Assembly (NCBI GenBank): GCA_040904005.1
Contig: JBBDUH010000018.1
Coordinates: 1 to 51,095, forward strand
Direction: 5' to 3'
Source: Minisyncoccota bacterium
Lineage (GTDB): Bacteria > Patescibacteriota > Minisyncoccia > Phycocordibacterales > SW-6-46-9
Length of the DNA: 51,095 nt
Below the pieces are notes generated by a model, which saw only the letters and a list, made by a program, of their open reading frames with translations, ran no database searches and was not told the DNA's origin. A program made the translations under genes and the position numbers. Below are positions 1,303 to 47,796 of this stretch, piece after piece. Position 1 is the first letter of the stretch. Each line of letters begins with the position of its first letter.

Positions 1303-1403
1303 GGCAATCGCACTCCTAAGGAGCAGGGTTACCTTCGCTTTTTTCTACTAACTTTTATCATCCAATTCACAACAATGATTATACTCGATTGAGTTCTCGC
1401 GTC

Positions 1404-1540
1404 AAGGAAATAGCATCTCTTAATAAAGAGATAAATTAGCCATTGCATAAATGTATGCAATGGCAGCTATTTCCTTGTCTACCGTCGCGCCGTTCGGATA
1501 TGAATACAAGTGTTCATATCGCTCACTTTGCTCGGTAGTC
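1404..1540 (+). repeat. S-element copy 1: structured ~140-nt element (three-way junction plus two-stem tail)
   Basis: Outer stem AAGGAAATAGC/GCTATTTCCTT (1404-1414/1466-1476) encloses hairpins 1415-1432 and 1439-1464. Tail is CTACCG..GATATGAA-loop-TTCATATC..CGGTAG (1479-1538). The same architecture with different stem sequences is at 47594-47739. Confidence 0.6.
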
Positions 1541-1629
1541 AAGGGTCAGAAATCTCGCACTAATAAAAAACTGCCGGTCTGCGTAATTACAGATCCGACA
1601 GCTAAATTTTAGTGAATTTAATCTTTCTG

Positions 1630-2031: not shown

Positions 2032-2469
2032 TTAAACTTTCTCGCGAGAAATTGCTGTAAGTAGTGAGTTTGCTTTCGCTAGAACCCGGCACAACCGATG
2101 ATAGTCAAGTAGCTCTTTTGTGGCCTCTTCTTCTTGTTCGATAACTTTAGACAAAGAGAGAACAGCCTGACCAAGGTCTATAAGATTAGATCCTGAATCT
2201 CTTCTCACCATCCATAAAGAATTTTGGAACCACATGTAATCAATAAGAACGCGAGATACGTCTTGAGTCTCTCGTCTCGAAACTTCCGTAGTTGCATTTC
2301 TTAATTTCCGAAAAGAAACAGGGATATCGCTTTTTAGATAACTTGGATCTCCAAATAGATAATTATTATCCTCAGAAAATGGTCTGAGGTCTTGATTAAA
2401 GATCCTTCTCACTATGTCCATCTCTTCATCGGTAATTTTCAGATCTTCTTTCGTTTCTGTTGTTGTCAT
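2032..2469 (-). CDS. hypothetical protein (145 aa)
   Basis: ORF whose ATG sits directly behind the GGAGG of leader copy 2. No family recognised. Confidence 0.6.
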   Translation of the reverse strand: MTTTETKEDLKITDEEMDIVRRIFNQDLRPFSEDNNYLFGDPSYLKSDIPVSFRKLRNATTEVSRRETQDVSRVLIDYMWFQNSLWMVRRDSGSNLIDLGQAVLSLSKVIEQEEEATKELLDYHRLCRVLAKANSLLTAISREKV

Positions 2470-2887: not shown

Positions 2888-2912
2888 CCTTGTTAGAGTC
2901 GGATCATACCAG

Positions 2913-3042
2913 GCCTGTTAGACTTCCGAAGTCTAACAGTGGCTCATTCCGTCTGAGAAAAACATGTTTTTCTCAGACATAAATTCGCACGACCGTTCTT
3001 TTATCCCGTAAAAGCGGAATAAAAGATATCGGGTGCTCATTT
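2913..3042 (-). repeat. E-element copy 1
   Basis: The - strand reads AAATGAGCACCCGATATC, hairpin CTTTTATTCCGC..CGGGATAAAAG, core GAACGGTCGTGCGAATTTATGTC, hairpin TGAGAAAAACATGTTTTTCTCA, then hairpin 2915-2939. Confidence 0.7.
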
Positions 3043-3078
3043 AAAAACCCGCCGACCAGTTAATTCTGGTGGCGGGTT
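3043..3078 (-). terminator. Rho-independent terminator of the 126-aa gene
   Basis: The - strand has AACCCGCCACCAG-loop-CTGGTCGGCGGGTT followed by TTTTT. Confidence 0.7.
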
Positions 3079-13983: not shown

Positions 13984-14149
13984 ACTTAAATATTATCACG
14001 CTGCTTTAAAAAATGGTTGATTTATTCACCACACAACCGGCCCAAGCCGTCGGATAAAGCGAGCGCTTCGACTTGCGATGCGAAGTGCTCGCGGCTTCCG
14101 AAGTTAAGACTTCTTATCTCGTTATTTAATTAGCGAAGTCTAACGACTT

Positions 14150-23450: not shown

Positions 23451-24053
23451 ATGTCTAATTTAATTCCAACAGTAATAGAAAAAACCAATCGTGGCGAGCG
23501 AGCCTACGACATCTACTCGCGCCTCTTAAAGGAGCGCATTGTCTTTCTGGGTGGACCGATCTACGACCAGGTCGCCAACACCGTCATCGCCCAGCTCCTC
23601 TATCTAGAGAGTGAGGCACCCGACAAAGACATCTCACTTTACATCAACTCTCCAGGTGGATCCGTCACCGCTACATTGGCGATGCTCGACACGATGAACT
23701 ACGTCCAGTGTGACATCCAGACCATCTGTGTTGGTATCGCTGCCTCTGGTGGTGCTGTGCTTCTCTCAGCCGGAGAGAAAGGTAAACGCTTCTGCCTTGA
23801 AAACTCCGAGGTGATGATCCACCAACCCCACGGTGGTGCCGAAGGACAAGCGACAGATATTGAGATCACGGCCAAGCACATTCTGAAAACGCGTGAACGT
23901 CTCAATGAGATCATGGCCGAGAATACCGGGCAGACCGTCAAGAAGATCCAGGACGATGTCGACCGCGACTTCTTTATGACCGCTGAGGAAGCCAAGGGGT
24001 ACGGGATTATTGATGAAATCATGCAGAGTAAGAAAAAGAAATCTACAAAGTAG
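23451..24053 (+). CDS. clpP: ATP-dependent Clp protease proteolytic subunit
   Basis: 200 aa. Contains [20 protein letters not shown], and the catalytic Ser, His and Asp lie in conserved contexts ([13 protein letters not shown]). Confidence 0.97.
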
Positions 24054-24086
24054 ATTTCTTCCGTAACATAAAGCGTGTAACGTAAA

Positions 24087-24110
24087 AGTGCCTTCTTGGG
24101 CGCTTTTTTA
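24087..24110 (+). terminator. Terminator after clpP
   Basis: AGTGCC-TTCTTG-GGCGCT (one G-U pair) followed by TTTTTT. Confidence 0.6.
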
Positions 24111-24138
24111 ATACCTACAAATGGCCACGATCAATAGT

Positions 24139-46298: not shown

Positions 46299-47324
46299 TT
46301 AGTTAAATGGGTTAGATGCGCCCCTGACCTCAAAGTGAAGGTGAGGCCCAGTAGAACGACCAGTGGAGCCAATGTAGCCAATCACCTGACCCTGCACAAT
46401 ATTTTGGCCGTGAGAAACGATCACGCTCGAGAGGTGAGAGTAGAGTGTTTCCGTGCCGTTAGGATGGCGGATAACAACGAAGTTGCCGTAGCCACCATTC
46501 CAGCCCGAACCAACACTTTTGGTAACCTGCCCAGAAGCAGCAGCGACAATGGAGGTGCCGCGCAGCGCAGCGAAGTCAACGGCGTTGTAGCCATGTAGCC
46601 GCTGGGTAACCACCGAGCCGGGTACCGGGTGAATAAAGTAGCCAGAAACATTGGTCTGAGCGGCGCTTGTCACCGCTCCTCCGGCCGCCACGTAACTTCC
46701 CGAGCTCTGTGCGCGCGCCGGTGCCTGCTTCGGCATTTTGCCACCCGGAATATCAATGATGGCACCAATTGACAGTACATCTTCTTTATCCAGCTCGTTG
46801 TAATCGCGAATCTCTGCAACACTACTGTCGTAACGCTTCGCCAAGGTAGCAAGGGTATCGCCGTCCTCCACATCGTGACGCACACCAGAAACAGGCAGAA
46901 TCACCAGGACATCATCAGGTGAAATGGTGCTACCAGAGATATCATTAGCCCAGACGATTGTATTAACAGAAACACCGAACATCTCGGCCACCTCGCCAAG
47001 CGTATCGCCCGCCCGCACTACATAAATACTGGCCTGCTTGCGGTTAGAGTGAAGGCCATTAAGGTCAGCATCCTCACCAGTAGTCGGACTCTTGGGCGCC
47101 ACCACGGCTGCATCGCCGACAATATTGAGATCTGGGCCACCCAGACCCAGCTCCTGCTTGGCAGACTGACTTGGTCGGTGCAGCGCGAGTGTCTGTAGAT
47201 TAATATCACCAGAAGTAGCGGTGATGCCACCTGTATCAGCATCAGCTCGCGAATCAAGGGTGGTAAGAACAAGCAAAAACAGCGCCAACCCTACTAGGGC
47301 AGCAACTGTCAGAATGTGTGTCAT
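46299..47324 (-). CDS. LysM-domain M23 peptidase
   Basis: 341 aa with a signal/anchor, two LysM repeats (YVVRAGDTLGEVAEMFGVSVNTI, HDVEDGDTLATLAKRYDSSVAEI) and M23 motifs (HGYNAVDF, GSTGRSTGPHLHFEV). Confidence 0.9.
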   Translation of the reverse strand: MTHILTVAALVGLALFLLVLTTLDSRADADTGGITATSGDINLQTLALHRPSQSAKQELGLGGPDLNIVGDAAVVAPKSPTTGEDADLNGLHSNRKQASIYVVRAGDTLGEVAEMFGVSVNTIVWANDISGSTISPDDVLVILPVSGVRHDVEDGDTLATLAKRYDSSVAEIRDYNELDKEDVLSIGAIIDIPGGKMPKQAPARAQSSGSYVAAGGAVTSAAQTNVSGYFIHPVPGSVVTQRLHGYNAVDFAALRGTSIVAAASGQVTKSVGSGWNGGYGNFVVIRHPNGTETLYSHLSSVIVSHGQNIVQGQVIGYIGSTGRSTGPHLHFEVRGASNPFN

Positions 47325-47593
47325 CCGAGCGGATATATGATAAGGCTCGGAGTCTTGTGTAGTAGATTTAATAAGTCAGAAAAATATAAGAGGCGAGGCG
47401 GATGGCGGTAGTGCGGCAAGGATGGTCATGCGGCCAGTCGGCGATACAGAGAATTTCTTATTTATTTGAAGCTATTGAATATCTCATGATTTTCTCTTCT
47501 TTTCATGAGATATTAAGCAGCCTCTATTTACAAGAACGATTATAACCGCCGGCAAGCGGCTGTCAACGGGATGACTATAAATACCATATTTGT

Positions 47594-47739
47594 CAAATAG
47601 ATAATGAATTTTTATTAAGGAGAGCAAGAGGCTCTCCTGTTTTCTGAATCTTCAGAAAACAATTATCTATTTGTCTCCCAACGCTCCGTTCGGACATATA
47701 AACAAGTTTATATATCGCTCACTTCACTTGGTAGTCAAA
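47594..47739 (+). repeat. S-element copy 2
   Basis: Outer stem CAAATAGATAAT/ATTATCTATTTG (47594-47605/47662-47673) encloses hairpins 47618-47638 and 47639-47660. The tail ..CCAA..ATATAAA-CAAG-TTTATAT..TTGGTAG ends at 47739. Confidence 0.6.
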
Positions 47740-47796
47740 AAGTTCCAGAGACTTACTTATCGTTCTTAGGCTAAACAACGATAATCCAGCATGATT

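Follow-up and report, generated by a model that had tools for sequence, protein, structure and literature searches.

The closest described counterparts of the element reported here are the REP/BIME/REPIN, Correia and BOX repeats, the miniatures of IS200/IS605 insertion sequences (ISs), and integron attC sites, each of which misses at least one defining feature. REP/BIME/REPIN elements of proteobacteria are mobilised by RAYT (Y1 HUH) transposases (PMC3116915, PMC3337134, PMC3733652). Here, we describe the S-element, which occurs in a window of 51,095 nucleotides (nt), i.e., the whole stretch of DNA that was analysed, from a Minisyncoccota bacterium (GenBank assembly GCA_040904005.1, contig JBBDUH010000018.1, positions 1 to 51,095 of the forward strand). 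The S-element is a composite of a "junction" module and one or more "tail" units, of which the tail is the unit common to all lineages examined. On balance, we regard it as a probable member of a phylum-wide group of non-autonomous palindromic mobile DNA repeats, similar to REP/BIME elements or to MITEs (miniature inverted-repeat transposable elements) and placed at promoter edges.

Like REP/BIME/REPIN elements, S-elements are short extragenic palindromes that are multi-copy, patchily distributed, and arranged as singles, dimers, or tandem clusters; their subfamilies are separated by compensated stem changes, and RAYT-like genes are found in nearly all tail-bearing genomes. However, the S-element unit measures 65–71 nt and contains an invariant asymmetric bubble, whereas a REP is a hairpin of 20–40 nt that bears a GTAG or CGTC tag on one side. 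In the tail, GTAG lies within the closing stem (CTACC/GGTAG), and CGTC is found in many units, 11 nt from the terminal hairpin. Further differences are that the RAYT genes are flanked by other hairpins here, that the bubble is conserved across classes, and that the composite has a junction module and a precise placement at −35 boxes.

Correia elements of Neisseria (NEMIS/CREE) are generally known as non-autonomous palindromic insertions of ~100–150 bp at gene borders, with ends lying in or forming promoter hexamers and with long hairpins when transcribed, all of which resembles the S-element. In contrast, they are also known for 26-bp terminal inverted repeats, a TA duplication, an IHF site, and near-identical copies, and have neither a tail-type bubble nor a multi-hairpin junction. 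It is likewise general knowledge that IS200/IS605 ends and PATEs, as exemplified by IS608, are hairpin-dependent and strand-specific and insert beside a fixed penta- or tetranucleotide without a true duplication, with the TTAC target and TCAA end of IS608 corresponding to GTCAA and GTCAA in the S-element. The internal TTGTC at the hairpin foot of the S-element is complementary to both cleavage-site-like motifs, and Y1 genes are present; however, no TnpA/TnpB gene is associated with it, and its left hairpins are variable and do not resemble the right end. The inverted ends with their flanking GTCAA repeat might recall MITEs; the repeat is invariant and may thus belong to the element itself, and no parent IS was found. 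Integron attC sites are also imperfect palindromes (57–141 nt) with inverse cores at the base, extrahelical bases, a variable tip, and a structure that is kept over sequence. The S-element differs from them by lacking IntI and the GTTRRRY/RYYYAAC cores (its own being TTGTC/GTCAA), and by being dispersed at promoters instead of arrayed in cassettes. Pneumococcal BOX repeats, again by general knowledge, are modular and intergenic as well, consisting of one head and internal modules in tandem, the number of which varies, and have stable predicted folds. They are unrelated to the S-element in sequence, module structure, and host, and have no fixed relation to a −35 box. By analogy, the order GTCAA, junction, TTGTC, tail, and GTCAA might be likened either to the guide-directed site choice of IS608 or to attB/attL/attR.

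Results

The S-Element Combines Exchangeable Junction Hairpins with a Covarying Tail

The genome that contains the window (G000; 553 kb, 77 contigs, 74% complete) was placed among Parcubacteria-type Patescibacteria, as the closest relatives of its PcrA protein come from metagenome-assembled genomes of Nomurabacteria and Paceibacteria (47% identity). It was compared to a congener (G001); the two genomes are ~75% identical. In the initial annotation, two copies of a three-way junction plus tail had been described in the window, with diverged sequence and compensatory stems. Every stem listed there was found at its position, and both copies fold far better than shuffled sequences. The minimum free energy fold of copy 1 (−59.0 kcal/mol, z = −9.3) recovered the junction and the rod-like tail, and that of copy 2 (−42.4 kcal/mol, z = −5.7) recovered the three-way junction; in both cases, none of 200 shuffles was as good. 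The tail of copy 2 appears as a rod solely in the minus-strand fold, and the reverse strands of both copies fold about equally well. Between the two copies, the junction stems are unrelated, without any common sequence, and the tails are ~79% identical. The tail of copy 1 reads TTGTCTACC..CGTTCGGA, hairpin, TCGCTCACT..GGTAGTCAA, with GTCAAGG at its right end, so that this motif brackets the copy (1401–1407 and 1538–1544), and TTGTCAA at 47590–47596 precedes the junction of copy 2. The coordinates of all features are listed in Table 1.

Further copies in G000 were first located by BLAST and pattern scans of the genome itself, and eight of its tails were used to train the covariance model R1 (71 positions, 22 pairs). 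The tail is an imperfect hairpin of ~65–71 nt with the order closing stem, CGYTCGG, A-rich terminal hairpin, (Y)CTCRCT, and closing stem. Together with one bulged base, CGYTCGG on the 5′ side and CTCRCT on the 3′ side form an asymmetric, invariant bubble. The closing and terminal stems co-vary, and the bubble sequence is conserved across classes. Among 65 distinct tails from 16 genomes, paired cells amounted to 91.9%, compared to 68.9% in shuffles and 36–50% in slid controls, and changes on both sides were found at 22 of 22 pairs, with the reservation that the alignment was fitted to R1 and somewhat favours structure. The compensatory stems proposed from two copies extend to strong covariation across the family. 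The strand polarity of the tail is fixed (~15 bits for the reverse strand vs. 84 with R1).

Tails occur alone, in tandem (one to four units), or after a junction module; in G111, a genome of another class, they are mainly single or paired. Inner units of tandem arrays are linked by a small connector hairpin (..TGAGCAGATT / CTGCCTCC..), and the GTCAA end is confined to the last unit. In the junction module, two to three perfect, exchangeable hairpins are enclosed by an A/T-rich stem. Within the genus, the layout is TTTGTCAAATAAATnn, two to three perfect hairpins, and nnATTTATTTGTCT, followed by the tail, and the composite terminates in GGTAGTCAA. In another genome (G035), the junction can be reduced to one short hairpin (AAAGGGTATTAAACCCTTT) and can also gain extra hairpins, which are then bracketed by a direct repeat of GGTATTAAACC. 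The ends of the element are inverted (TTGTC..GTCAA), with GTCAA as a flanking direct repeat (GTCAAGG at copy 1).

As a side observation, the 12-mer CAAATAGATAAT, which forms the 5′ arm of the closing stem of copy 2, has an exact match at 2352–2363 (+) inside an open reading frame (ORF) of 145 aa (2032–2469); the chance expectation for such a match in the window is ~0.006.

Table 1. Positions of the two S-element copies, their modules, and the associated promoter and target sites within the window.
Feature	Position	Strand	Description
Copy 1, whole	1404–1545	+	Three-way junction and rod-like tail
Copy 1, left GTCAAGG	1401–1407	+	Half-site of the target (−35 box in reverse complement); left flanking direct repeat
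Copy 1, junction module	1404–1476	+	A/T-rich closing stem around two perfect hairpins (1415–1432 and 1439–1464)
Copy 1, outer stem	1404–1414 with 1466–1476	+	AAGGAAATAGC (1404–1414) pairs with GCTATTTCCTT (1466–1476)
Copy 1, tail unit	1475–1545	+	71-nt imperfect hairpin; R1 86.7 bits, E = 8e-23
Copy 2, whole	47594–47741 (fold, 47594–47745)	+	Three-way junction and tail
Copy 2, junction module	47594–47673	+	Closing stem 47594–47605 with 47662–47673; hairpins 47618–47638 and 47638–47661
Copy 2, tail unit	47671–47741	+	R1 81.7 bits, E = 3e-21; ends in GGTAGTCAA (47730–47738)
Promoter TTGACG-16-TATAAT	1378–1405	−	Directed at the 23S rRNA gene, whose 5′ end is near 1058; 11/12 consensus matches
Promoter TTGACA-16-TATAAT	47539–47566	−	Faces the M23/LysM peptidase gene (46299–47324); 12/12 matches
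Empty site	42508–42545	+	Terminator end (..GGGTGCTTTT) directly before TAAGTATTTGACG-17-TATTGT

S-Elements Are Patchily Distributed across the Phylum

The count of two copies turned out to be too low, as at least seven loci were found in G000 and many more in other genomes. Searching the genome and its relatives by covariance model, as proposed with the initial annotation, revealed these additional copies and their strong covariation. In G000, R1 detected eight tail units at six loci, to which a degenerate seventh locus (C41:33950–34140) has to be added, and in G001 it detected 26 tail units at ~15 loci, frequently in tandem. Three of the four other genomes of the same family had no tail units; elsewhere in the order, R1 had matches in 14 of 39 genera. 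Across a sample of the phylum, tail units were present in 13 of 150 genomes, with the largest burst comprising 31 units in one genome. Furthermore, more than 120 contigs from groundwater metagenomes contained the core CGCTCGYTCGG..CTCRCTCGCTAG.

The proposed Rfam search gave no matching family: at gathering scores, Rfam 15 had no match for the window copies or for six further copies (the infC-leader copy described below included), and a permissive scan of 1250–1650 reached a best E of 0.77. The family was absent from the literature searched and could not be matched to any named repeat family. Carriage by phages was considered and rejected, as IMG/VR yielded no match to the type-A core, and only 2 of 14 matches to a looser pattern were compatible with the model. 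Two IMG/VR entries filed as viral, UViG_3300045988_117994 and UViG_3300045988_143592 (L163 1446–1511 and L166 9292–9357), contain tail-like units of 30–32 bits; they may be phages or prophages of the candidate phyla radiation or misfiled DNA of its bacteria.

Copies Were Gained and Lost between Congeners, with Probable Exchange of Hairpin Modules

Comparison of G000 and G001 revealed insertion polymorphism. At the counterpart of 42517–42521, G001 carries a ~190-nt junction-plus-tail element between the terminator and TATTTGAC / TATTTGACA, and the site is empty in G000. The promoter of this site occurs in both species; as it is found on both the filled and the empty chromosome, it pre-exists, with the element just upstream. 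On the upstream side of the 23S promoter, the flank common to both species stops at GTCAAG and is followed by an S-element in G000 vs. a different palindromic element of ~330 nt in G001. There, G001, which lacks copy 1, reads GGTCAAGGGGTC at the point of the left GTCAAGG, and homology resumes at the upstream terminator. The ~330-nt element itself (C2 ~1430–1760; L287 ~830–1160) is a long-range palindrome with internal CGTCTCGGGCTCGCTCC..CCGCTCGCC motifs. Copy 2 is also absent from G001, and the ftsA–ftsZ spacer holds an array of ~500 nt in G001 vs. 122 nt without an element in G000. For the pcrA spacer and the C41 locus, alignment to G001 gave no usable homology.

Unit number also varies between orthologous loci: the murF–ddl spacer has one tail in G000 vs. 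three in G001, and its inner hairpins are unrelated yet perfect, with flanks and outer stem ~88% identical. The unrelated perfect hairpins within such similar flanks point to an exchange of hairpin modules. Near-identical dispersed copies were found in G035, where two copies on different contigs are identical at 170 of 171 nt; their ends (AAATAAAAGG ... GGCAATAAAAAA) are sharp, and nothing in their flanks is related. Two paralogues in G001 are ~88% alike and lie at unrelated loci, and the C41 copy in G000 is decayed. The values for the murF–ddl flanks and the G001 paralogues, like the 93% given below for the infC copy, are estimates by eye and were not computed.

The Junction Side Abuts the −35 Box of an Opposite-Strand Promoter

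The two copies had been placed upstream of the 23S gene region and upstream of pcrA, respectively. The consistent neighbour is, however, an opposite-strand sigma-70 promoter whose −35 TTGAC is the left boundary of the element. Of the 18 G000 and G001 loci, 16 have the start of an opposite-strand gene on the junction side, mostly at a distance of 55–125 nt, and 13 have, on the tail side, the 3′ end of a further gene that lies on the same strand as the promoter gene. TAnnnT follows 16–18 nt past the boundary TTGAC[AG] at 14 of 16 loci, compared to 13.9% of all genomic TTGAC[AG] (binomial p = 9e-11). Read along the gene strand, the order within the genus is the terminator of gene A, TTGACT, tail(s), junction, TTGACA-N16-18-TAnnnT, and gene B. 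Elements of the genus have only one orientation relative to the promoter and lie on the strand opposite to the neighbour gene. The genes behind the abutted promoters are mutually unrelated and include 23S rRNA, an M23/LysM peptidase, Ddl, FtsZ, RpoB, and small membrane proteins.

At copy 1, the −35 box of the 23S promoter is the left boundary of the element, and the flank of this promoter is 77% conserved in G001, up to GGTCAAG. The boundary TTGACA of copy 2 has no −10 box of its own, and the perfect TTGACA-16-TATAAT lies 26 nt beyond. Both surroundings hold additional features. A terminator-like hairpin (AGCCGCTTTCGAGCGGCT) with a T-run is located at 1285–1302 (−), between the 23S promoter (1405 to 1378) and the 5′ end of 23S (~1058); it is nearly identical in G001, together with its surroundings, and may be a leader processing or antitermination structure instead of a terminator. 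Between the M23 peptidase gene and copy 2 (47330–47545, +), we identified promoter-like TTTAAT..CAGAA, Shine–Dalgarno-like AAGAGG, and an ORF of 47 aa (47402–47545); TTTAAT..CAGAA is kept in G001, and the ORF is not evidently kept.

Stem Mismatches and Orientation Do Not Indicate a Single RNA Strand

A plus-strand structured RNA in two copies had been implied initially. The repeated element with its conserved architecture stood up to analysis; however, the mismatch spectrum, the family-level orientation, gain and loss, and the near-identical dispersed copies speak against the RNA. In the stems, G·T mismatches (58) were about as frequent as A·C mismatches (64), also within the genus (45 vs. 53). 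No single RNA strand is therefore evident, as a selected RNA should give G·U far above A·C. Orientation to the flanking genes is mixed in other genera, and metagenomic copies were oriented same/same in 17 cases, opposite/opposite in 13, and mixed in 10 and 7. A consistent plus-strand promoter upstream of the junctions was not found, as matches reached 8–10 of 12 positions, varied in placement, and were missing at several loci. Several loci have a symmetric −10 region (TAnnnTA) 17–23 nt before the element, which could possibly act in both directions.

One copy stands out by its context, namely the leader of infC in G000 (C50 ~23880–24135, − strand; L046). It consists of a four-way junction and a tail, with a conserved TTGCGA-17-TATAAA upstream and a GTG-started infC downstream, and may be an exapted leader. 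An infC/L20-type leader as the general context of the family was rejected, since IF3 lies downstream of none among 88 further type-A copies and no match to the Rfam L20 leader was obtained.

Candidate Mobilising Enzymes and Neighbouring Repeat Families

IS200/RAYT-type Y1 genes were present in 15 of 16 tail-bearing vs. 12 of 25 tail-free relatives (naive Fisher p = 0.003, with relatives being non-independent). RAYT was nevertheless rejected as the cognate transposase, because these genes exist and correlate, yet are flanked by other REPs: the G001 gene has GTTAGACTTCGGAAGTCTAAC hairpins at its flanks, and the G000 gene and a second G001 gene have CTGTAAGG..CCTTACAG hairpins. The RAYT-like gene of G000 (G000:C19:7672–8406; L062 1773–2507) encodes 244 aa with the HUH motif NHYHLIL and the tyrosine motif YVLVKN. 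Its flanking on both sides by CTGTAAGGGCT(T/A)AGCCCTTACAG hairpins represents a classical REP–RAYT arrangement in a genome of the candidate phyla radiation (CPR), and each of the two RAYT-like genes of G001 has its own REPs; a Y1 protein of 220 aa is encoded in G001 at C2:742209–742871.

Other candidates were rejected as well. An extra tyrosine recombinase or integron is not indicated, as a single Xer-like gene was found per genome in five genomes. For TnpB, there were only sub-threshold zinc-ribbon matches inside large ORFs. A retron or other reverse transcriptase was dismissed, as PF00078 is absent from G001, G035, G027, and G022 and occurs in G000 only on contig C4, away from the copies. 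This G000 domain (G000:C4:775–1506, − strand; 66 bits) has one in-frame TGA.

A link to the E-element, another structured repeat in the window, had been drawn from the shared TACCGTCGCGCC. Allowing up to two mismatches, this 12-mer had five matches compared to 2.3 expected, and 13 of 100 shuffles equalled this number. With a chance-level motif and a different fold, kinship was rejected; the E-element represents a separate structured repeat family with the architecture GAATGAGCRCCSGA, hairpin, ACSGTCGYGCGAATTTATGTCC, and hairpin. Its copy at 2893–3062 holds the REP hairpin CTGTTAGACTTCGGAAGTCTAACAG at 2913–2939 (see also 14135–14144), and this hairpin likewise flanks a RAYT-like (Y1 HUH) gene of G001 (L060 1770–1808 and 2492–2570).

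Discussion

We favour a mobile DNA repeat because G·T equals A·C in the stems, orientation is random at the family level, near-identical copies are dispersed, sites exist in filled and empty states, and degenerate as well as tandem copies occur. Such a repeat would spread at the DNA level, probably via a folded single strand that is recognised by a trans-acting host enzyme. The internal TTGTC at the border of junction and tail can pair with GTCAA at either end and may select the GTCAA target in the manner of IS608 guides. Selection would retain only those insertions that spare promoters. The promoter survives the insertion, with the A/T-rich arm of the element taking the place of upstream promoter DNA. 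It is bolder, and in our view unlikely, to regard the tail as the recognition structure of a conserved Patescibacteria machinery that places folded cassettes at −35 boxes by TTGTC–GTCAA pairing, or to regard the element as a self-propagating RNA gene, comparable to short interspersed elements, that was exapted as leaders or insulators in genomes of ~0.7 Mb.

Several observations weigh against a mobile repeat. No mobilising enzyme is tied to the element: in G000 and G001, the hairpins on either side of the RAYT-like genes belong to other, short REPs, where R1 finds no tails, and G000, G001, G035, G027, and G022 each have one tyrosine recombinase (XerC/D-like score). No autonomous parent IS or element was found either. 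The flanking GTCAA repeat is invariant and therefore indistinguishable from an integral element end, and only two clean sites of filled vs. empty state or alternative occupancy are available between genomes that are ~75% identical. Conservation of the bubble across classes is unusual for selfish repeats and also fits a function in RNA or protein binding. Finally, the infC-leader copy is ~93% identical between the congeners, with flanks that barely align, and has two G·U pairs on the plus strand; this copy probably is selected and transcribed, as a leader.

As the main rival, the copies could be plus-strand structured small-RNA genes that are transcribed divergently from the neighbour's promoter region, end at the neighbour's bidirectional terminator, and act in trans, e.g., as a sponge or as a protein-binding RNA whose bubble is recognised. 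Strong covariation, unpaired nucleotides that are invariant throughout the phylum, and the fixed polarity of the tail agree with such genes, as do the promoter directly upstream of the conserved infC copy, the symmetric TAnnnTA regions of many loci, which could fire both ways, and the terminator hairpins usable in plus direction after many copies. We nevertheless consider them not very probable, because plus-strand promoter matches are weak and variably placed, G·U does not exceed A·C, bursts are patchy with gain and loss between congeners, copies degenerate, unit number differs at orthologous loci, and, over the wider family, copies are randomly oriented to genes. A host cis-acting promoter accessory, i.e., a block of hairpins that insulates the promoter from read-through together with A/T-rich, UP-like sequence upstream of the −35 box, would account for the strict abutment at 16 of 18 genus loci, the major genes concerned (23S rRNA, rpoB, ftsZ, and ddl), the A/T-rich closing arm beside TTGACA (ATTTATT), the terminator-like scores of the junction hairpins, and the last of these being followed by AUUUAUUU on either strand. 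However, a canonical terminator of gene A precedes the element in any case, the same promoters do without the element in the congener, and the conserved tail bubble, the tandem tails, and the other contexts in other genera would be left unexplained, which makes an accessory of this kind distinctly unlikely.

Highly improbable is a folded recombination site, with the tail as the site, the junction as cargo, and the single Xer inserting at a GTCAA core, by analogy with attC or Xer-dependent modules. It is true that GTC is the common core of three directly ordered sites with swapped arms, like attB/attL/attR (ATTTG-T-CAAAT, ATTTG-T-CTACC, and GGTAG-T-CAAnn), that a T·T mismatch is conserved in both closing stems, that the rod-like hairpin shows, like attC, a bulge, internal loops, and a tip that varies, and that there is exactly one tyrosine recombinase per genome. 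Nevertheless, IntI and the GTTRRRY core are missing, no dif site was identified with which the sites could be compared, nothing ties Xer to these sites, and inner tandem units have no GTCAA ends. TIGR-Tas stem-loop arrays, in which tandem hairpins keep their loop motifs and diverge in their stems, are also carried by CPR bacteria (PMC12045711; bioRxiv 10.64898/2026.09.09.750476). Tandem tails could be taken for such arrays, encoding guide RNAs for a Tas protein. The likeness is superficial, and guide arrays were rejected as largely refuted, with hardly any probability left: the loop segments of the tails are conserved, with partial pairing between them, rather than variable 9–10-nt spacers, the CUU (box C) and UG (box D) motifs are absent from the tails, and units are scattered over ~15 loci instead of lying beside one effector gene. 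In addition, the Pfam Nop domain PF01798 was absent from five tail-rich genomes, which is a weak test given the divergent Nop domains of Tas proteins.

Regarding practical consequences, S-element copies break assemblies and create spurious ORFs, so that they should be masked or modelled in CPR annotation, and R1 could seed an Rfam or repeat-library entry. As estimated from unit and locus counts, the family adds roughly 2–5 kb of folded non-coding DNA to a genome of ~0.8 Mb, although few known genomes are as streamlined as those of CPR bacteria. Within the genus, elements immediately adjoin promoters of core genes (23S rRNA, rpoB, ftsZ, and ddl), and one is found in the infC leader. If mobile, as we consider probable, the S-element would represent a new class of palindromic elements with promoter-edge targeting and no evident transposase; if functional, it would be a structured element that occurs phylum-wide and has a conserved bubble for binding proteins or nucleic acids.

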